NCBI GenBank assembly: GCA_021814165.1
Contig: JAKAIX010000001.1
Coordinates: 77,623 to 141,622 of the forward strand
Direction: 5' to 3'
Length of the DNA: 64,000 bases
DNA from: a bacterium
Lineage (GTDB): Bacteria; Patescibacteriota; Minisyncoccia; UBA6257; GWB1-50-10
Below the pieces are notes generated by a model, which had not been told where the DNA came from, made no database searches, and saw nothing but the letters and a program-made list of their open reading frames with translations. Shown here piece after piece: positions 8,714 through 60,625 of this stretch; position 1 is the first letter of the stretch, and the number at the start of each line of letters is the position of its first letter. A program made the position numbers and the translations under genes.

Positions 8714-9606
8714 GATTTCGCTATGGAAAACGTCCCGTGTAATTCCTCAATCTTTCCCTCCAATATAAGAAGAGAAAGCTCCTGATTCACTCGTTGTGTC
8801 TCAAGATGGGTCATTTCCGAGATGTTGTCAACCGTAAGAGGCGAAGAGGCCTCTTTGATGGCCCGGAAAACCGGAGATGTTTCTTTTTCCTCATGGCCCC
8901 TCTCCCGTTCTTTTTCCGGAACGGCAAGCACGCCTTCGTATGCCTTCAAGGCTTCTTCAAGATCGTGCGCGATGTCCTTTGCGCTTGTCACAAGTCGTGC
9001 TCCCTCCCGTATGAGCATGTGCGATCCCTGATAATTCCTGTGACGGACCGGTCCGGGCACCACGAAGACTTCGCGCCCTTGCTCGAGCGCGAAACGCGCC
9101 GTCGCAAGCGATCCCGATCTCATGGGCGCTTCGACGACGATTGTCGCGATGCTCATTCCGCTTATGATCCTGTTTCGTTCGAGGAATTGATGCCGTAGGG
9201 GAGCGATACCTTCCGGGTATTCCGAGCAGATAGCGCCGCTTTGCGCAACAATCGACTCCGCAAGATGTTCATGGAGCAGGGGATACACGGTATCGAGGCC
9301 GTTCGCAAGAACCGCAATCGTATTTCCTCCTCCCTGAAGCGCGCCTTCGTGCGCCGCGCCATCGATGCCGATTGCAAGTCCGCTCACGATGGTAATGCCT
9401 GCTTTCGCGAGATCATAGGCAATCTGTTTTGCGATAAGTTTCCCGTCTTGTGTCGCTTTCCTCGTACCGACGATTGCAACGCATATGCACGGGGAAGGAA
9501 ACGAGCCTTTTACGAAAAGCGTCGCGGGAGGGCTCGGTATTTCACGAAGCAGTTTCGGATACTCCTCCTCCGAATATGAGATGTGATGAATAGGAGAAAT
9601 CGGCAT
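8710..9606 (-). CDS. dprA: DNA processing protein DprA/Smf
   Basis: YPKLLREIPSPPATLFVKG...GTRKAT...GLAIGIDGAAHEGAL... is the DprA Rossmann domain. Start is set at the internal Met at 9606 because the longer ORF would overlap tRNA-Ile. Confidence 0.85.
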   Translation of the reverse strand: MPISPIHHISYSEEEYPKLLREIPSPPATLFVKGSFPSPCICVAIVGTRKATQDGKLIAKQIAYDLAKAGITIVSGLAIGIDGAAHEGALQGGGNTIAVLANGLDTVYPLLHEHLAESIVAQSGAICSEYPEGIAPLRHQFLERNRIISGMSIATIVVEAPMRSGSLATARFALEQGREVFVVPGPVRHRNYQGSHMLIREGARLVTSAKDIAHDLEEALKAYEGVLAVPEKERERGHEEKETSPVFRAIKEASSPLTVDNISEMTHLETQRVNQELSLLILEGKIEELHGTFSIAKS

Positions 9607-9638
9607 AACAATAACGATATCCAAAAACTGCCTTATTT

Positions 9639-9713
9639 TGGTGGGCATGGAAGGAATCGAACCTTCGACCTCTGTCTTATCAGGACAGCGTTCTACCACT
9701 GAACTACATGCCC
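9639..9713 (-). tRNA. tRNA-Ile (anticodon GAT), CCA encoded
   Basis: Reverse complement is GGGCATGTAGTTCAGTGGTAGAACGCTGTCCTGATAAGACAGAGGTCGAAGGTTCGATTCCTTCCATGCCCACCA. All four arms pair and the anticodon loop is CTGATAA. Confidence 0.9.
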
Positions 9714-9975
9714 GTATTCTTTATAAATCCATCTTTTACTATCTTATCAATATAATCCTTTCGCTTTAGTTTTTTCAACCTCAATTCTATTTTCCTGGCA
9801 ATCTACAAGCTTGGAAATTTTTGAACAAAAACTAATTTTTTTTCGTCCATTCTCCTTGTTGTTTGAGTATGACCGTGCTGGTGTTGATACCATCTTCTAT
9901 AAATATCATTAGTACTTCCAATGTACAATCTATTGTTCGTACCATCTTTAATAATATAAACAAAGCCATCCATAG

Positions 9976-10051
9976 GCGTTCTACCATCCCGACGCGCTTC
10001 GCGGTCGGGACTCCGACCCCCGAAGGGGCGTCGGAGTTGAACTACATGCCC
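9976..10051 (-). pseudogene. Partial tRNA-Ile copy (positions 1-26) with a 50-nt double-hairpin insertion in the D-loop
   Basis: Reverse complement is GGGCATGTAGTTCA + [ACTCCGACGCCCCTTCGGGGGTCGGAGT CCCGACCGCGAAGCGCGTCGGG] + ATGGTAGAACGC. It then diverges with no anticodon or T arm. Confidence 0.7.
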
Positions 10052-10079
10052 AAATTACGATTTTGAGTGTAAGTGAATT

Positions 10080-10298
10080 CTACTTCTGAATCAAGTTTAA
10101 TTTTTCAAACTCCTGGATATTAAATTGAAGATGCGTCGGAGCGACGCTCGGCGCCTCAAGTGCGCCTTCCAAACTCGACCCCAAGAATACGATTCCGTAT
10201 ATCACGAATGCGCCCGTGATGAGCACCATCGCCGAGGCAAGCACGATGAAAAACATATTCTTGGAAGCCAGACGAATTGTTCTTATCTTCTCACGCAT
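10080..10298 (-). CDS. Hypothetical small membrane protein (72 aa, 1 TM)
   Basis: ORF with hydrophobic core FFIVLASAMVLITGAFVIYGIVFLG, immediately downstream of the 10304-10828 gene on the same strand. Confidence 0.35.
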   Translation of the reverse strand: MREKIRTIRLASKNMFFIVLASAMVLITGAFVIYGIVFLGSSLEGALEAPSVAPTHLQFNIQEFEKLNLIQK

Positions 10299-10303
10299 GT
10301 TAC

Positions 10304-10828
10304 TTAGCGATAATACACCCGCCCCTTAAGCGTCATCGTGAACCGTCCCTCGTCGTTTCTTAAAGAGACGTTATCGATTGTATTCAGATATTTGAAGGTT
10401 TCCATCGCTTTGAGGAACGCGAGCGATGTCTTGGTGTCGCTTCCTCCAAGCGCGAGCGAAAATCCGATCGATCCCAATCTATCCTTCGTCGGTTGCGTTT
10501 CGCTGGTAAAGGAAAACCCGTAGGTTAACTGATACTGGTTCGCGAGCGTCTGAAGCGACTGATTAAGATCGATAAGATTGTCATACGAAGGAATAATCGC
10601 CTGAAGCACGCTTAAATAGTTCTTTGCCCTTGAGTTATATTGGGCCTCGAGAAGCGCCTTGTCGTACACTTTTGAGGTCTGACTCGCGAGCAATTGTCTC
10701 GCCTGGGTAATTTTCAGAAGGTACTCACTGATGTTGCTTTTAAAGAAAAAAATGCCCCATAACAGCGCGACGATGAGTATAAGTGCGACACCGAGGTCGA
10801 TCCAGAGGCGTTTTTTGAAACTGTCCAT
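10304..10828 (-). CDS. Hypothetical membrane-anchored protein (N-terminal TM, possibly PilO-like)
   Basis: Start chosen at MDSFKKRLWIDLGVALILIVALLWGIFFF. One TM followed by a ~150-aa soluble region with no clear catalytic motif. Confidence 0.5.
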   Translation of the reverse strand: MDSFKKRLWIDLGVALILIVALLWGIFFFKSNISEYLLKITQARQLLASQTSKVYDKALLEAQYNSRAKNYLSVLQAIIPSYDNLIDLNQSLQTLANQYQLTYGFSFTSETQPTKDRLGSIGFSLALGGSDTKTSLAFLKAMETFKYLNTIDNVSLRNDEGRFTMTLKGRVYYR

Positions 10829-10895
10829 GGCTCTCTTCCTATTATAGCGTACTCGGCTTGAACCCGCATCCGTCTCATCGTACACTATACGCACT

Positions 10896-10953
10896 GGGCC
10901 GTTAGCTTAGCTTCCGCCAGAGGCGGACCAGCCTTTGGCTGGGGTAAGAGCGC
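10896..10953 (+). pseudogene. Partial tRNA-Ala copy (positions 1-26) with a 32-nt double-hairpin insertion in the D-loop
   Basis: GGGCCGTTAGCTTAG + [cttccgccagaggcgg accagcctttggctgg] + GGTAAGAGCGC. The first 15 nt match the tRNA-Ala at 11196 exactly. Confidence 0.7.
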
Positions 10954-10959
10954 AACCTT

Positions 10960-11205
10960 ATGTTCTCTGTCTATGTCTTAAAAAGCCTGAAAAACGGGAA
11001 GAGATATATTGGGTATACGAGCAAACCTCCACAAGTAAGGTTAAAAGAACACAATAATGGTTCGAATGCATTCACCAAAAATAACAAACCATTTGTGTTG
11101 ATATATTCCGAACAGTATAGTAATAAAAGAGAAGCCATCCAGAGAGAGCACTTTCTGAAATCAGGGAAGGGGAGAGAATTTCTGGATAACAGTTTGGGCC
11201 GTTAG
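10960..11205 (+). CDS. Small standalone GIY-YIG nuclease-family protein (81 aa)
   Basis: VYVLKSLKNGKRYIGYTSKPPQVRLKEHNNG...NKREAIQREHFLK is a GIY-YIG/URI domain. Its TAG stop codon lies inside the 5' end of tRNA-Ala. Confidence 0.75.
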   Translation: MFSVYVLKSLKNGKRYIGYTSKPPQVRLKEHNNGSNAFTKNNKPFVLIYSEQYSNKREAIQREHFLKSGKGREFLDNSLGR

Positions 11206-11268
11206 CTTAGTTGGTAGAGCGCCTCGTTTGCAACGAGGAGGTCACCGGTTCGAATCCGGTACGGTCCA
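11196..11268 (+). tRNA. tRNA-Ala (anticodon TGC)
   Basis: GGGCCGTTAGCTTAGTTGGTAGAGCGCCTCGTTTGCAACGAGGAGGTCACCGGTTCGAATCCGGTACGGTCCA. G3:U70 pair present, anticodon loop TTTGCAA. Confidence 0.9.
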
Positions 11269-11412
11269 CATACAAAACCCCCGACCCCTGGTCTAGAAAA
11301 CCCTCGGTTTCCCACAGCCTTCCGACACAGGGGTTTTGCTTTTATTTTGCGAGGCAAAAAATGCTGAATCCGAATGGGTTTTTTGAGAGTATTGTAGGTT
11401 GAATCGCAACCA

Positions 11413-11913
11413 TTGATAAAATCCCGTTCTTGTTGGATAATTTTACAAACGATATACATGGGTAATTTCAATCTGTTCAATCTTGAAGTGCATTTTAAGC
11501 CAAGTTTCTCGTTACGCTTTCGAAAAAAGCGCCTTGATAAGGTATCAGCAAATATACTTTTTATTGATGATTCAGATTGCCCTGTGGTTGAAAACTTGAC
11601 CAAGGCTGGTTGGTCGGTAAAAAAGATCGACGATATCGTAAATGTTCAAGACGAAGAAATAAAACGAGCCGACATAGTTTTTGTAGATTACAAAGGTGTT
11701 GGTATCGACCTTTCAGAGGAAGAACAAGGAATTAGTGTGATAAAAGCTATTAAGAAAGCATATGGTGATTCCAAGAGAGTTATCCTATATTCCGCATACG
11801 GACATTTTAAGTTAAGCATGAACATGCGCGTCGCCGATAATCAGATGTCAAAAAACTCAGATACATTTGAATTTATCTCTATGATTGAATCTGAGTTAGA
11901 GAAAATTAAATGA
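11413..11913 (+). CDS. Single-domain response-regulator receiver (CheY-like) protein
   Basis: REC landmarks: NILFIDDSD (acidic pocket), ADIVFVDYKG (phospho-Asp), KRVILYSAY (Ser/Thr), HFK (Lys). AT-rich island. The true start may be an internal Met at 11458. Confidence 0.6.
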   Translation: MIKSRSCWIILQTIYMGNFNLFNLEVHFKPSFSLRFRKKRLDKVSANILFIDDSDCPVVENLTKAGWSVKKIDDIVNVQDEEIKRADIVFVDYKGVGIDLSEEEQGISVIKAIKKAYGDSKRVILYSAYGHFKLSMNMRVADNQMSKNSDTFEFISMIESELEKIK

Positions 11914-12878
11914 CATTTTATCGAAGAAAAAATACGGGAGGTGAGGTTACCGCTACCAACATTCCGGAAAACTTTGATATATCTAGCTACACCACAAAAG
12001 AATTTAATTTAGGAGATGGAAAAATTGAGTTCATCACTAACGACTTAGAACTAGTAAAAAGATCAAAAATTTTAAGGAAAGTTGTTGAAACAAGCGGTCC
12101 AATAGTTATTTCTATTCAAGATAATTTTATCAACCAAATAAAAGAGCACTCTCACACTCTAAAGAGACTCCAGGGGCAATTGAAACAAAAAATAGAGGGG
12201 GTTGTAGATTGCAAAAAATTTCCTAACAAGAACCACTCTGAGCAACGAGAGATTGTGTCTAATGAGATTAAGTCAGATGTTAAAACAATAGCTGATGTAT
12301 TGATTTATTTACGGAAAAGAATACTTGAAATAGATGCACATATTGCTAGTTTCGAAATTATTCATATGGGAGAAGAAATTCAACTTGATATACGACCGCA
12401 TAACATTCGAAATATCATTATTAACATCCTATATGCCTTTGAAGATGAATCCCGGGGCACATGGATTAAACCTAGTTTCCAATTCACGAATGAGCTCGCC
12501 GAAACGAATAAAATCAAACTAGACTATAAAACAGTTAATACAGCTTTCTATAATTTCTTTGATAACGCAATTAAATATATAAAACCGAGCTCTGATATAA
12601 GATTCTTTCTTTCATTTCAGGATGGAGAATTTAAATTATTAATAACGATGATCAGCTTGAGAATTGAACAAGAAGAACTAGCAAAAATATTTGACTTGAG
12701 ATATAGGGGTAAAAATGCTGAAAAAGTTGAAGGATTGGGTATAGGAATGTATGTCGTCAAGAAAGCGCTAGAATTAAATAGATTTTCTATCAAAGTCAAT
12801 CCTGATTACAGTCACATGGAACATTTTCAAGGTAAGCAATATATTCTCAATCAGTTTGAAATTTCTGGGAGGGTTTAA
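11910..12878 (+). CDS. Cytoplasmic histidine kinase (HisKA + HATPase_c) with ~90-aa N-terminal domain of unknown function
   Basis: H box EHSHTLKRL, N box FYNFFDNAIKYIKP, G2 box GLGIGMYVVKKALELN. Start overlaps the receiver stop (ATGA). Confidence 0.65.
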   Translation: MTFYRRKNTGGEVTATNIPENFDISSYTTKEFNLGDGKIEFITNDLELVKRSKILRKVVETSGPIVISIQDNFINQIKEHSHTLKRLQGQLKQKIEGVVDCKKFPNKNHSEQREIVSNEIKSDVKTIADVLIYLRKRILEIDAHIASFEIIHMGEEIQLDIRPHNIRNIIINILYAFEDESRGTWIKPSFQFTNELAETNKIKLDYKTVNTAFYNFFDNAIKYIKPSSDIRFFLSFQDGEFKLLITMISLRIEQEELAKIFDLRYRGKNAEKVEGLGIGMYVVKKALELNRFSIKVNPDYSHMEHFQGKQYILNQFEISGRV

Positions 12879-24538: not shown

Positions 24539-26377
24539 ATGTGCGGCATCGTAGGCTACATCGGTAAAAGGGAAGCGGCACCCGTGCTCCTCGACGGACT
24601 GAAACGCCTTGAATATCGCGGATACGATTCGGCCGGCATCGCGATCTTGAAAGAAGGAAATATCAACGTGGCGAAGGTTGTGGGAAGAGTGAAACAACTC
24701 GCCGAATCGGAACAAATGCCCGCACTTCGGGGCACGACGGGAATAGCGCACACAAGATGGGCAACCCACGGCAAACCGAGTGAACGGAATGCGCACCCGC
24801 ACGGCGATTGCACCAGCACCATCTTCGTCGTTCATAACGGCATCATCGAGAACTACAAAGAACTAAAACACAATCTCGAGGAAGAAGGCCATGTCTTCAA
24901 ATCGGAAACCGACACGGAAGTCGTCGCGCATCTCGTGGAAAAATTTAAAAAGGAGGGAAACGATCTCGAAACCTCGGTAAAAAAATCTCTGAAGCTCGTG
25001 AAAGGCGCATATGCCATTCTCGTGATGGCGGAATCGGAACCCGCGACGCTCGTTGCCGCTCGTCTCTCGAGTCCTCTCCGGATAGGCATGGGGCCGGATG
25101 AATTCATTGTCGCTTCTGATCCCTCCGCGATACTGAACTATACGCAAGAAATTGTCACTCTGCATGACGAGGAGGTAGCGGTACTCAAAAACGGAGAATA
25201 TACCATCACCAGTTTGAACGGAGACAGAATAATCGACCGCGAGGTGGAAAAGATAGAATGGGACCTGGAGCAGGCGGAAAAAGGAGGGTTTCCTCATTTT
25301 ATGCTCAAAGAAATATTTGAGCAGCCCGAGACGATAGAAAACAGCCTGCGCGGACGCGTAATCGTGGACGAAGGACTCGCGAAGCTTGGGGGACTCGATA
25401 CCGTAAAGGACGAATTACGCGACATCGAACGACTGACGATCGTCGCGTGCGGTACGGCGTACTACGCGGGTCTTGTGGGGGAGTATATGATTGAGGAATA
25501 CGCGGGATTACCGGTCGAGACCTGTATCGCCTCGGAATTCAGATACCGAAAACCGATCCTCATACCCAAGAAAGACGCCGTGCTTGTACTAAGCCAGTCG
25601 GGCGAAACGGCGGACACGCTTGCTGCCGTTTCGGAAGCGAAGGAAAAGGGAGTGCTCTCCCTCGGAATCGTGAATGTCACGGGGAGCACGATCGCGCAGA
25701 ATACCGACGCGGGAATCTATAACCACGCGGGACCCGAGATCGGCGTCGCATCGACCAAGGTGTTCGTCTCCCAGCTTACCGTACTCTCGCTTCTCGCGCT
25801 CTTCCTCGGCAGACAACGGCACATGTCGCTCACAATGGGAAAGAGAATTGCCGAAGAGCTTTTGAAAATTCCCGATCACGTGAGGAGTATTCTCACCATG
25901 GACGATTCGATTCTTACAATCGTGAAACGCTACGTTAACTACCCCGACTTTTACTTTCTGGGACGCAAGTACAATTACCCGATAGCGCTCGAAGGGGCGC
26001 TGAAGCTTAAGGAAATTTCTTACATTCATGCCGAAGGAGGATCCTCCGGAGAATTAAAACACGGTCCGATCGCCATGATTGATCCGAACTTCCCTTCCCT
26101 GTTCATCTGTCCCAAGGACAGCGTCTACGAAAAGAATTTGAGTAATATGGAGGAAGTGAAAGCGCGACAAGGGAAAATCATCGCGATCGGAACGGAAGGG
26201 GACGGTGAACTGGGGAAAATTGCCGATGACGTCATTGTTATTCCGAAGACGCTCGAGATGCTGACACCCATTCTGAGCGTCATTCCGCTTCAGCTTTTTG
26301 CATACCATGCAGCCGTCCTCAAAGGAAAGGACGTCGACAAACCGAGAAATCTCGCGAAGAGCGTAACGGTGGAATAA
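24539..26377 (+). CDS. glmS: Glutamine--fructose-6-phosphate aminotransferase
   Basis: MCGIVGYIG N-terminal nucleophile Cys, followed by two SIS domains. Confidence 0.93.
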   Translation: MCGIVGYIGKREAAPVLLDGLKRLEYRGYDSAGIAILKEGNINVAKVVGRVKQLAESEQMPALRGTTGIAHTRWATHGKPSERNAHPHGDCTSTIFVVHNGIIENYKELKHNLEEEGHVFKSETDTEVVAHLVEKFKKEGNDLETSVKKSLKLVKGAYAILVMAESEPATLVAARLSSPLRIGMGPDEFIVASDPSAILNYTQEIVTLHDEEVAVLKNGEYTITSLNGDRIIDREVEKIEWDLEQAEKGGFPHFMLKEIFEQPETIENSLRGRVIVDEGLAKLGGLDTVKDELRDIERLTIVACGTAYYAGLVGEYMIEEYAGLPVETCIASEFRYRKPILIPKKDAVLVLSQSGETADTLAAVSEAKEKGVLSLGIVNVTGSTIAQNTDAGIYNHAGPEIGVASTKVFVSQLTVLSLLALFLGRQRHMSLTMGKRIAEELLKIPDHVRSILTMDDSILTIVKRYVNYPDFYFLGRKYNYPIALEGALKLKEISYIHAEGGSSGELKHGPIAMIDPNFPSLFICPKDSVYEKNLSNMEEVKARQGKIIAIGTEGDGELGKIADDVIVIPKTLEMLTPILSVIPLQLFAYHAAVLKGKDVDKPRNLAKSVTVE

Positions 26378-30133: not shown

Positions 30134-30361
30134 ATGGGGAAGCGGGGAGCAAAACCACAGGGAAAGGTGAAAATAAAATGGTCGCCAAACTTTGCGTATG
30201 CCGTAGGACTCATAACTACAGATTATTCTCTAAAATATGCGAAGGCCAACTCATTGAAATTACTACCGAAACTGTATTATGATAAGCGTGTTATCTGCCT
30301 ATCGAGAAAACGAAGGGAGATAGAGAAGGCGCTGCAGGTAGAGGGGGTAACATTAAAATAA
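30134..30361 (+). pseudogene. Truncated LAGLIDADG homing-endonuclease fragment (75 aa)
   Basis: KIKWSPNFAYAVGLITTDYSL resembles the LAGLIDADG motif region. AT-rich. Abuts tRNA-Leu. Confidence 0.45.
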
Positions 30362-30362
30362 C

Positions 30363-30486: not shown

Positions 30487-30500
30487 ATTTAATACGTGAT

Positions 30501-30516
30501 GGGAGAGGACTCGAAC
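30501..30516. repeat. Inverted copy of tRNA-Leu T-arm/acceptor 3' segment
   Basis: gggagaggactcgaac is the reverse complement of gttcgagtcctctccc. Confidence 0.6.
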
Positions 30517-30606
30517 AGGAGAGGGGTAGGGAGAACACGCTGGTCTCCCTTGGCGGAAATATTAAAACCGAGGGGTTTTAAAACAGCATCTTACAGAGAT
30601 GCTGTT

Positions 30607-30627
30607 GTTCGATTCCTCTCCCGCGCA
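30607..30627. repeat. Direct copy of tRNA-Leu 3' end (T-loop 3' half + acceptor)
   Basis: gttcgattcctctcccgcgca versus the tRNA's gttcgagtcctctcccgcgca. Confidence 0.7.
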
Positions 30628-30673
30628 CAATCCTTCGCTAAAGCTACGGAATTGCATGCATTATAATAAGAGT

Positions 30674-30991
30674 ATGTATTATGCATACATCTTGTTAAGT
30701 TCAAAATCTCATATCTTTTATTACGGATCCACAAGGAATCTCAAGACGCGATTTCAGCTTCATAACTCTGGGAAGGTTCCTTCCACAAAACCACATCTAC
30801 CATGGAAACTGGTTTGGTATGGCGGATTTGAGACAGAAAAAGAAGCTAGAGATTTCGAACTTTACCTAAAGACGGGGTCTGGAAAATCATTCGCATACAA
30901 ACATCTTGTCTCCGTAGCTTTGGCGGAGGATTTTACAAAAGGAAGAATGGGTAGTCTGAAGTCATCCGCAGTCCGAAGGACGAAGGACTGA
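30674..30991 (+). CDS. Small standalone GIY-YIG nuclease-family protein (~105 aa)
   Basis: MYYAYILLSSKSHIFYYGSTRNLKTRFQLHNSG...ETEKEARDFELYLKTGSG is a GIY-YIG/URI domain. Flanked by tRNA-Leu 3'-end copies. Confidence 0.75.
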   Translation: MYYAYILLSSKSHIFYYGSTRNLKTRFQLHNSGKVPSTKPHLPWKLVWYGGFETEKEARDFELYLKTGSGKSFAYKHLVSVALAEDFTKGRMGSLKSSAVRRTKD

Positions 30992-31000
30992 CGTAGGATA

Positions 31001-31013
31001 CCTCTCCCGCGCA
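31001..31013. repeat. Third direct copy of tRNA-Leu acceptor 3' segment
   Basis: cctctcccgcgca lies 10 nt after the GIY-YIG stop. Confidence 0.55.
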
Positions 31014-48867: not shown

Positions 48868-48972
48868 CAAACTGAAATGCTCACCCTTGCGGTGGTATAG
48901 CAGAGAAAAGTCCGTCTCAGACGGACAATATTCGATTCCACTCCATTTTTTCTGTGCTACAATAGAGGCATC

Positions 48973-59950: not shown

Positions 59951-60625
59951 ATGGCTACACTCTACATCGTTGCCACGCCGATAGGAAACCTGAAAGACCT
60001 CACGCTTCGCGCAATTGAGGTTTTGCGAGAAGCCGATTTGGTACTCGCCGAGGACACGAGGGTGATACAAAAAATACTGAATCATCTGGACATTCGGAAA
60101 CCCGTGTGGCGCGCCGATGAATACGCGCACGATTCTTTTTATAAAAAAGTTGCCGAGTTTCTTCAAACGGGAAAAAATGTAGCGTTCGTGAGCGATGCGG
60201 GCACGCCGGGAATAGCCGATCCCGGATCGAAACTCGTAAATTACATAAGCGAATATGCTCCGGACACCCGCATCGTACCGGTTCCGGGCGCCTCCGCGGT
60301 CGCCGCACTCCTCTCGGTAGCGGGAATTAATACCAACGAATTCACGTTCGTAGGGTACCCGCCCCACAAAAAAGGGAGGGAGACGTTCTTCAAGAATCTC
60401 GTCGAAATCAAAGTCCGTCCTATTGTTCTTTACGAATCGCCGCATCGGCTTCAGAAGACCCTGGAAGGAATCGAGAAAGCATTTGGAAAAAACCAAAACA
60501 TCGTCGTGGGGAAAGAACTCACGAAATTGCATGAAGAAATTTGGCGCGGTACGCCGGGAGAAGCAAAGGAGTATTTCAAAGGTGAAAAGGGGAGAGGGGA
60601 GTTTACCATAACGATAAATGACTGA
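59951..60625 (+). CDS. rsmI: 16S rRNA (cytidine1402-2'-O)-methyltransferase RsmI
   Basis: MATLYIVATPIGNLKDLTLRAIEVLREADLVLAEDTR is the tetrapyrrole-methylase fold. Confidence 0.88.
   Translation: MATLYIVATPIGNLKDLTLRAIEVLREADLVLAEDTRVIQKILNHLDIRKPVWRADEYAHDSFYKKVAEFLQTGKNVAFVSDAGTPGIADPGSKLVNYISEYAPDTRIVPVPGASAVAALLSVAGINTNEFTFVGYPPHKKGRETFFKNLVEIKVRPIVLYESPHRLQKTLEGIEKAFGKNQNIVVGKELTKLHEEIWRGTPGEAKEYFKGEKGRGEFTITIND

Follow-up and report, generated by a model that had tools for sequence, protein, structure and literature searches.

The Ssn proteins (cd10448; Chenal et al. 2025) are single-domain GIY-YIG nucleases of 94 amino acids (aa) that bind hairpin repeats flanking their own gene; they act on single-stranded DNA, on one strand only, cutting a few bases upstream, and are inactive on double-stranded DNA or RNA (PMC11893778). 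The authors of that study remark on the transposon-like repeat-gene-repeat layout, favour domestication in Neisseria and make no mention of tRNA (PMC11893778). Here we describe a cassette of about 300 bp in a 64-kb window (the whole stretch of DNA analysed, from contig JAKAIX010000001.1 of a patescibacterium), in which an 81-aa GIY-YIG open reading frame (ORF) and a pair of short hairpins lie between a displaced 5′ fragment of tRNA-Ala and the intact gene. Such cassettes are real, widespread and mobile; how they move we infer. We favour, with moderate confidence, the view that they are a widespread selfish element which lives in the 5′ part of tRNA genes and is Ssn-like in its action. Among characterised systems Ssn is the closest and, by analogy, the cassette probably works like it. 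Both have a single-domain GIY-YIG protein of about 80-95 aa, whose gene is flanked by short directional hairpin repeats with further copies scattered through the genome. However, the cassette hairpins are paired 15-nucleotide (nt) units which do not follow the SRM consensus, and the cassette gene lies within tRNA genes, where the tRNA 5′ end is duplicated and the stop codon falls within the tRNA.

Other known systems share parts of this layout. SegB of T4/T6 cuts inside tRNA genes, and recombination then amplifies the tRNA and its own gene in tandem (PMC13096335; PMC2330249). It resembles the cassette as a GIY-YIG gene beside tRNA genes, in cutting within them and in tandem amplification, but it is a two-domain, phage-encoded protein that cuts double-stranded DNA, and it has no hairpin pair, tRNA stump or ORF-tRNA overlap. 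With the IS200/IS605 and REP/RAYT systems the cassette shares strand-specific orientation and abundant miniature derivatives and perhaps also end hairpins and insertion by a short motif; at tRNA sites the pair stands behind CAGTT without duplication. These systems rely on a HUH tyrosine transposase with covalent intermediates, of which a GIY-YIG hydrolase is incapable; the cassette has no HUH (Y1) transposase, its sole ORF being the GIY-YIG gene. A further difference is the 7-nt direct-repeat signal found here around solitary hairpin pairs. Integrative elements that target tRNA genes bring a replacement tRNA end, so that the tRNA stays functional and a partial copy is left as a scar. They measure kilobases, encode a tyrosine or serine recombinase and replace the 3′ end, whereas the cassette measures 300 bp, has no recombinase and replaces the 5′ end; a second family of cassettes, represented at tRNA-Leu, does share their 3′-end duplication. 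Finally, Paquin, Laforest and Lang (1994, 2000) reportedly found that a free-standing GIY-YIG ORF of Allomyces mitochondria inserts at the end of atp6 together with a replacement end, leaving the old gene end as a pseudo-fragment, in a genome that is also said to contain small mobile double-hairpin elements. That case is said to differ in its organelle genome, its protein-coding target and its larger endonuclease, and a link between hairpins and nuclease was reportedly not demonstrated there. The ingredients of the cassette are known, namely Ssn-type nuclease-hairpin pairs, homing genes with a replacement end and tRNA-regenerating integration. Their combination, in which the tRNA provides the stop codon, its 5′ end is duplicated and a hairpin pair occupies CAGTT^GG, has not been described, and neither has its scale; a literature search found no description of tRNA-embedded mini GIY-YIG cassettes.

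The features of the window are listed in Table 1, where t denotes tRNA position; loci and contigs drawn on for comparison are labelled L plus a number. As the preliminary description had stated, the first 15 nt of tRNA-Ala are repeated upstream: GGGCCGTTAGCTTAG at 10896-10910 is identical to 11196-11210, at a spacing of exactly 300 nt, and is the single match of at least 14 nt to the tRNA-Ala 5′ end in the window, about 1e-4 being expected by chance. The CT ahead of the hairpins, formerly counted in a double hairpin of 32 nt, corresponds to t16-17 and agrees with the allele of an unoccupied relative (L085), so that the displaced fragment comprises t1-17 and the double hairpin, otherwise as described, is exactly 30 nt long. 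It consists of two 15-nt units, each with a 6-bp stem and a 3-nt loop, and sits in the D-loop at t17/18, its flanking bases not being duplicated. The pattern YCMGCC-N3-GGCKGR has two matches in the 64 kb, both in this pair (0.07 expected), and the pair folds as single-stranded DNA with z = -4.5. The stretch behind it is tRNA-derived, as had been proposed, and covers t18-26 with an extra A instead of t16-26. The standalone 81-aa GIY-YIG ORF predicted at this place was borne out, as was the origin of its stop codon, since TAG at 11203-11205 is U8-A9-G10 of tRNA-Ala. Compared with the unoccupied allele, the cassette adds the hairpin pair at t17/18, a few tRNA bases, the spacer, the GIY-YIG gene and a new t1-17. 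The old 5′ end is left as a stump behind the native promoter, and a complete tRNA, whose 3′ flank is that of the unoccupied relative, is restored downstream.

Table 1. Features of the tRNA-Ala, tRNA-Ile and tRNA-Leu cassettes in the 64-kb window.
Feature	Position	Strand	Details or basis
Promoter-like leader of native tRNA-Ala	10858..10895	+	TTGAAC, 17 nt, TACACT, 9 nt
Displaced tRNA-Ala 5′ fragment, t1-17	10896..10912	+	bases 1-15 as in the intact tRNA, 11196-11210
Hairpin pair, 30 nt	10913..10942	+	TCCGCC-AGA-GGCGGA then CCAGCC-TTT-GGCTGG
Resumed tRNA fragment GGTAAGAGCGC, t18-26 plus one extra A	10943..10953	+	comparison with the tRNA and L085
Spacer AACCTT, 6 nt, between GGTAAGAGCGC and the ORF ATG		+	sequence
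81-aa single-domain GIY-YIG ORF	10960..11205	+	Pfam PF01541, E = 7.5e-16
Intact (regenerated) tRNA-Ala(UGC)	11196..11269	+	ARAGORN; Rfam tRNA model, 72.9 bits
tRNA-Ile cassette, left part	9987..10051	-	t1-14 at 10051-10038, one altered base; two longer hairpins 10036-9987
tRNA-Ile cassette, right part	9704..9986	-	t16-26 at 9986-9976; GIY-YIG ORF 9973-9704
Intact tRNA-Ile(GAU)	9639..9713	-	ARAGORN; Rfam
3′-type cassette by tRNA-Leu	30607..31013	+	sequence repeats, Pfam GIY-YIG match
Copy of tRNA-Leu 3′ end	30607-30628	+	first part of 3′-type cassette
Conserved left end AATCCTTCGCTAAAGCTACGG	30629-30650	+	3′-type cassette
105-aa GIY-YIG ORF of 3′-type cassette	30674-30991	+	Pfam GIY-YIG
GTAGGATAC and second tRNA-Leu 3′-end copy	31001-31013 (tRNA copy)	+	right side of 3′-type cassette

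The tRNA-Ala leader now abuts the displaced fragment. It is near-identical in L083, L085 and L088, and in L085 it runs straight into an intact tRNA-Ala. It agrees with the promoter consensus at 8/12 positions, under the threshold of the promoter scan and hence unlisted there; its sequence suggests a promoter function. A search of 9000-12000 against Rfam at E <= 1 returned the two tRNAs only, leaving the hairpins without a family, and an exact-sequence look-up of the 81-aa protein found no record. The ORF at 10960-11205 has no listed gene in the gene table of DAIBYO010000003.1 (GCA_027423885.1; L081 3371-4001), perhaps, as a guess, because ORF and tRNA overlap; such cassettes are therefore likely under-counted in annotations.

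The cassette at tRNA-Ile has the layout that had been noted as shared with tRNA-Ala, and in addition its ORF is broken. Its terminal TAG is t8-10 of tRNA-Ile, and the read-through translation matches Pfam GIY-YIG (E = 9.4e-16), but an in-frame TAG at 9805-9803 marks it as a pseudogene. The ORF is just 26% identical to that at tRNA-Ala, and the hairpin part folds with z = -4.0 as DNA and -3.7 as RNA. In L085, the upstream sequence ttacactcaaaatcgtaattt runs straight into an intact tRNA-Ile.

Is this arrangement ancestral in the lineage, or was it acquired? We fetched syntenic loci through homologs of a 174-aa neighbouring protein. In L085/L086, where this protein is 72% identical, both sites are empty, tRNA-Ala and tRNA-Ile being uninterrupted; the sequence reads 'cttgaacccgc..tacactatacgcact' and then directly tRNA-Ala, with the 3′ flank of the window. 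Conversely, in the window the leader stretches known from L085/L086 precede the 5′ stumps, and their 3′ flank trails the intact tRNA. The stump has C16 like the empty allele and the regenerated tRNA-Ala has T16, a single-base difference which hints that the downstream t1-17 arrived with the cassette. In L088 (neighbour protein 71% identical) an 81-aa GIY-YIG ORF occupies tRNA-Ala, but it is only 39% identical to that of the window; its hairpin-rich insert of about 60 nt is unlike the window's, the stump consists of t1-13 followed by t23-32, and the stop TAG is again in t8-10. L083 and L090 carry tRNA stumps without an ORF, in L083 with a hairpin after the stump. Since empty, differently occupied and remnant relatives exist, the arrangement is variable and not ancestral and fixed, the outcome which would have told against mobility in the preliminary description; the comparison shows that the cassette is an insertion. 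In L083 (1674-3242) we also noticed a tRNA-Ala of another allele behind a hairpin-rich leader of about 107 nt, flanked by a large serine recombinase, a helix-turn-helix protein and an AAA_33 protein; this locus is probably an integrated element using the same tRNA.

The family extends far beyond these relatives. We found 95 close homologs of about 80 aa for the 81-aa protein, and a full profile search returned 4,611 cluster representatives at E <= 1e-10, nearly all of 80-120 aa; homologs overall are mostly 79-120 aa long. We examined 80 loci from different species, labelled as Patescibacteria lineages, Omnitrophota, WOR-3 and some probably mis-binned taxa. A same-strand tRNA starts within -25 to +160 nt of the ORF stop in 66/80 loci, and the stop codon falls at t8-10 in 28/80. 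A contig ends at most 100 nt past the ORF in another 7/80, and the leftover 7/80 are mostly tandem, nested, or have a tRNA missed by ARAGORN. These counts come from an intron-aware run, default ARAGORN having missed intron-containing tRNA-Asn so that 29 loci seemed free of tRNA. At least one hairpin unit lies within 160 nt upstream in 75/80 loci and an adjacent pair in 63/80; hairpins also lie downstream in about 10, and solitary copies are common, as in Ssn. The first 8 bases of the downstream tRNA are recognisably copied in 52/80, and hairpins and tRNA 5′ copy occur together in 51/80. The hosts comprise at least 10 isotypes (Asn, Ala, Val, Ile, Phe, Met, Thr, Pro, Arg and Lys). The same ORF had been expected beside other tRNAs if the cassette is mobile, and it is found there, at tRNA 5′ ends; together with the empty tRNA-Ala and tRNA-Ile sites of L085, this upholds the claim that a mobile GIY-YIG cassette enters tRNA genes and regenerates an intact tRNA. 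The nearest neighbour of an ORF is at the same isotype in 28 cases and at a different one in 24, so that relatedness only partly tracks the tRNA and cassettes switch isotype over time. We found no recombinase within or beside the cassettes of the window or the 80 loci. Viral contigs yielded only one weak relative of the 81-aa family, which argues that the element is not phage-borne.

The hairpins break the tRNA copy after t8, t12-13, t17 or t27-28, the flanking bases not being duplicated, and several loci bear signs of ongoing recombination. L021 carries an exact tandem of t1-17, hairpin pair and ORF; in L080, two clades are nested at one tRNA-Asn, with their own hairpins and each ORF ending in the TAG of t8-10; in L057, stump and hairpins are repeated twice; and L070 has seven tandem 103-nt units, each of 6 nt, hairpin pair, t29-76 and trailer. 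In about 10 loci, the intact tRNA is directly followed by 5-10 tRNA bases, a hairpin pair and the remaining part of a tRNA; L009 has such pieces on both sides of ORF and tRNA, its two hairpin pairs differing by one base. Three Nomurabacteria loci (L001, L009 and L010) have the cassette at tRNA-Ile(UAU). The L009 stump, t1-17, is identical to the intact tRNA of L001, whose own stump matches the intact tRNA of L010 at 16/17 bases, with L010-like bases after the hairpins too; these matches indicate that the whole tRNA, both acceptor strands included, is serially replaced.

Two further observations were made at these loci. L033 (2716-3012) is nested and hairpin-free: behind its first ORF come bases 1-35 of tRNA-Ala, which break off in the anticodon loop, a truncated second GIY-YIG-like ORF and an intact tRNA-Ala, an order that points to an anticodon-loop insertion point for another clade. 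The tRNA-Asn(GUU) beside a cassette often has an anticodon-loop insert of about 200 nt, group I intron-like, just after the GIY-YIG ORF (L011, L016, L042, L046, L049, L050, L062, L067, L074 and L075). Patescibacteria introns at site 35/36 are known, most of them without homing genes, and adjacent GIY-YIG genes are not mentioned in that work (bioRxiv 10.1101/2025.07.03.662931).

The hairpins are not a passive footprint: the pair is a 30-nt element with a direction and covarying stems, and copies of it are scattered by themselves as well. When 99 pairs of other genomes are read in the direction of the ORF, the varying stem positions covary perfectly (positions 3/13 of unit 1 are C:G in 62 and A:T in 37). 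Loop 1 is purine-rich, with A as its third base in 97/99, and the first base of loop 2 is T in 98/99; the orientation relative to the ORF is constant, and the consensus is that of the window pair. Constant orientation and asymmetric loops are compatible with an Ssn-like, strand-specific cleavage of single-stranded DNA. The pairs are flanked by CAGTT on the 5′ side and by GG or GA on the 3′ side. CAGTT^GG is the D-loop sequence of many tRNAs. In tRNA-Asn(GUU) it is native to position 28 too, and this accounts for the second insertion position. Over all pairs, loops 1 and 2 have 139 complementary positions, against 158 +/- 5.5 in shuffles, and the paired stems usually differ in type; both features argue for selection for two separate hairpins, and we rejected one long hairpin, or loop-loop pairing, because the loops are less complementary than in shuffles. 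Hairpin types also differ among divergent ORF clades (the window tRNA-Ile cassette, the upstream ORF of L080, and L088). These regularities mark the hairpins as functional, and the pair is probably what the nuclease recognises.

From the window and the 80 loci we had first thought the hairpins exclusive to the cassette, an idea overturned by an unbiased, exact-pattern scan of metagenome contigs (L094-L173). It found 86 pairs, all with the loop polarity of the cassette-linked ones. Only 3/86 are followed within 200 nt by the start of a GIY-YIG ORF, and an intact tRNA directly precedes one more; another 12 are too near a contig end to judge. Within ORFs of at least 150 codons, 52/86 are in frame and add about 10 residues, SA[QK]GGPASGW. 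Solitary pairs are flanked by ..TTT on one side and GA.. on the other, with a direct-repeat signal of 7 nt that amounts to 253 matches where shuffles give 192 +/- 9; examples are L124 962-991, L126 3496-3525 and L148 828-857, the context in L124 and L126 looking Gly/Phe-rich. Such in-frame insertions resemble the Rickettsia palindromic elements. The genes of this clade nearly always have hairpins and most hairpins have no gene, as is typical of an autonomous element accompanied by miniature derivatives.

The protein itself is wholly a catalytic domain. It scores 58.6 bits against a Pfam GIY-YIG cut-off of 22.6, and the tRNA-Ile and tRNA-Leu ORFs match too. Its AlphaFold model has the beta-beta-alpha-alpha-beta-alpha fold of GIY-YIG nucleases and no second domain (pLDDT, the predicted local distance difference test, 94). 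Among solved structures it comes closest to UPF0213 BH0048, Slx1, the I-TevI catalytic domain and the UvrC N-terminal domain, and the closest relatives found with a structure or an annotation are UPF0213 and YazA proteins. A plasmid collection gave matches to YazA/UPF0213 proteins only. Y5, Y16, R27, H31, E51 and E63 are invariant in 26 homologs.

How could such a cassette live and spread? It has no obvious promoter of its own and is probably transcribed from the tRNA promoter, as the leader of an essential tRNA; RNase P, cutting at tRNA +1, would strip the stop codon from the ORF message. By analogy with Ssn, the nuclease probably binds its cognate hairpins in single-stranded DNA, on one strand, and nicks a few bases upstream, which here would be inside tRNA-derived sequence. 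Such breaks may provoke recombination among the tRNA repeats and, through the near-universal D-arm, with other tRNA genes, which would copy the cassette into new tRNA genes and yield tandem and nested arrays. The hairpin pair could be mobilised in trans and spread as a 30-nt non-autonomous insert, often in frame. An insertion would survive only with a regenerated intact tRNA, so that every surviving cassette would be a stump followed by a whole tRNA. We further propose that a hairpin pair inserted in a D-loop could serve, together with the D-arm sequence on either side, as homology anchor for an incoming hairpin, ORF and tRNA, giving the L009 form, and that recombination between the two tRNA 3′ parts would then delete the right-hand scar to leave the common form with its native 3′ flank. 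This scheme of anchor and scar removal fits most of the forms observed.

A bolder formulation, possible but held only tentatively, is that the 80-aa GIY-YIG protein and the 30-nt double hairpin constitute a new class of mobile element, hairpin-directed and powered by a hydrolytic nuclease in place of a transposase or recombinase. For the autonomous copy, essential tRNA genes would be a safe harbour that repairs itself and from which it borrows the promoter and, as stop codon, U8-A9-G10; the miniature derivative would spread in candidate-phyla genomes, each insert adding ten in-frame residues; and the near-universal tRNA D-arm as target would permit spread across isotypes and phyla.

Several points weigh against the Ssn-like mechanism. 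Nicking beside the hairpin and a single-stranded substrate are assumed by analogy with a related family, and the SRM pattern of that family (HGTCWY..YYVSBRH..WNVSBRG..RNCYNB) finds no match in the window and a single one, not near an ORF, in 354 kb of related loci; a relaxed version likewise fails on the cassette hairpins. The 11 stem mismatches (C/A 6, T/G and G/T together 3, G/A 2) are too few to tell a sense-strand structure from a duplex palindrome. A hydrolytic nuclease is unable to join DNA, so that integration must use host recombination, and no intermediates (circle or excised site) were seen. Whether t1-17 is brought by the cassette or duplicated from the target turns on the one base C16/T16, which hints at the former. 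Finally, L015, L022, L047 and L070 have ORF and tRNA without a 5′ stump and carry hairpin-bearing 3′ fragments downstream, forms for which no single scheme yet accounts.

Some of this could be explained by a classical free-standing homing endonuclease of the SegB kind, cutting the double-stranded D-loop of cassette-free tRNA genes so that double-strand-break repair copies the cassette in, with the hairpins an unrelated repeat or a target-breaker in the stump. The preliminary description had said that the cassette homes; insertion into tRNA genes stands, and a highly conserved target is indeed polymorphic, being empty in L085, occupied in the window and L088, and reduced to remnants in L083 and L090. 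Solitary pairs show that hairpins can move independently, and tandem arrays are present here as in SegB, the precedent for cutting of tRNA genes with tandem amplification (PMC13096335; PMC2330249). Classical homing, in which the empty double-stranded allele is cut and insertion destroys the site, is nevertheless partly contradicted. The C-terminal DNA-binding domain of SegB or I-TevI is lacking, the protein being an 80-aa catalytic domain alone. Moreover, taking the hairpin insertion site as the target, occupied alleles have not lost it: regenerated tRNAs keep the motif, AGTTG[GA] being present in 35/74 adjacent tRNAs versus 5/29 other tRNAs of the same loci (Fisher p = 0.006), an enrichment which argues that there is no site immunity. 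Hairpins upstream of nearly every ORF, in fixed orientation and of a type that varies with the ORF clade, are also unlike a chance passenger. We therefore regard homing of this kind as unlikely.

Domestication, which the Ssn authors argue for in Neisseria (PMC11893778), is less probable still. A host gene, serving for instance in repair or in the control of incoming DNA and co-transcribed with the tRNA, with stump and hairpins as regulatory leader, would agree with a large conserved family, with invariant catalytic residues and with an ORF behind a conserved tRNA promoter. It sits badly with a presence that varies among close relatives, with unrelated clades sharing one site, with a tRNA-Ile copy that is a pseudogene, with ORF-less remnants and tandem and nested copies, and with so many host isotypes; repeated independent insertion has already been seen. 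Least probable by far is that the cassette is the remnant of an integrase-type element or prophage with a tRNA attachment site and the GIY-YIG gene its leftover cargo. Partial tRNA duplication is a hallmark of such integration, and in L083 a large serine recombinase does stand beside a replaced tRNA-Ala. But the unit is merely 300 bp, the duplicate is of the 5′ and not the 3′ end, recombinases are absent as noted above, and the architecture is identical across phyla, with the same boundaries in genomes without a nearby integrase.

At tRNA-Leu, for which a related arrangement had been claimed, a GIY-YIG gene with tRNA copies is present, but it belongs to a distinct, mirror-image family whose ORF lies 3′ of the tRNA and which is another answer to the same problem as the 5′-type cassette. 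Its 105-aa protein has 544 homologs at 70-80% identity in many candidate-phyla lineages. Canonically, an intact tRNA (Ser, Gln or Leu) is followed by AATCCTTCGCTAAAGCTACGG, the ORF, GCGAAGGATT..GTAG and a copy of the last 15-19 or so bases of the tRNA. The first 10 bases of AATCCTTCGCTAAAGCTACGG are the reverse complement of GCGAAGGATT near the right end (window 30629-30650 and 30965-31000; L214-L233), giving this family short terminal inverted repeats of about 10 nt. In the window, decay has left just the 3′ end of the tRNA-Leu copy joined to the cassette, with an intact tRNA-Leu 160 nt upstream. Between this intact gene and the cassette, at 30498-30517 (-), the T-arm and acceptor 3′ end of tRNA-Leu recur in inverted orientation (GTTCGAGTCCTCTCCC), which suggests a further rearrangement or a second, decayed insertion. 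On the 3′ side of tRNA-Glu, at 48905-48955, a hairpin GTCCGTCTCAGACGGAC is followed by TTCGATTCCACTCCA, which looks like a T-arm plus 3′ end and is perhaps a scar left by a 3′-type insertion. Exact 13-nt matches to the T-arm region of tRNA-Leu and tRNA-Ile at 25067-25079 and 60462-60474 (-), remote from tRNA genes, may be chance or old fragments. A 75-aa ORF at 30135-30362 contains WSPNFAYAVGLITTD and ends at the tRNA-Leu start; we considered it as a LAGLIDADG remnant, which is unsupported, with no Pfam match at E <= 0.1.

In conclusion, if the cassette is the selfish, Ssn-like element that we favour, thousands of unannotated or 'hypothetical' 80-aa GIY-YIG genes of candidate phyla, Omnitrophota and others would be one mobile system. 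This system would remodel tRNA genes through allele replacement, pseudo-fragments and arrays, and its hairpin derivative would add loops of ten residues to proteins. It would account for the tRNA fragments of these genomes and for assemblies that break at tRNA genes. The single-strand-specific nucleases of the Ssn type, a recent discovery, would gain a concrete selfish life cycle, and the diverse natural nuclease/hairpin pairs would be on offer as tools for single-stranded DNA. Furthermore, where the invariant U8-A9-G10 closes an ORF whose stop codon RNase P could strip, tRNA maturation and the expression of a selfish gene would be coupled in a new way.

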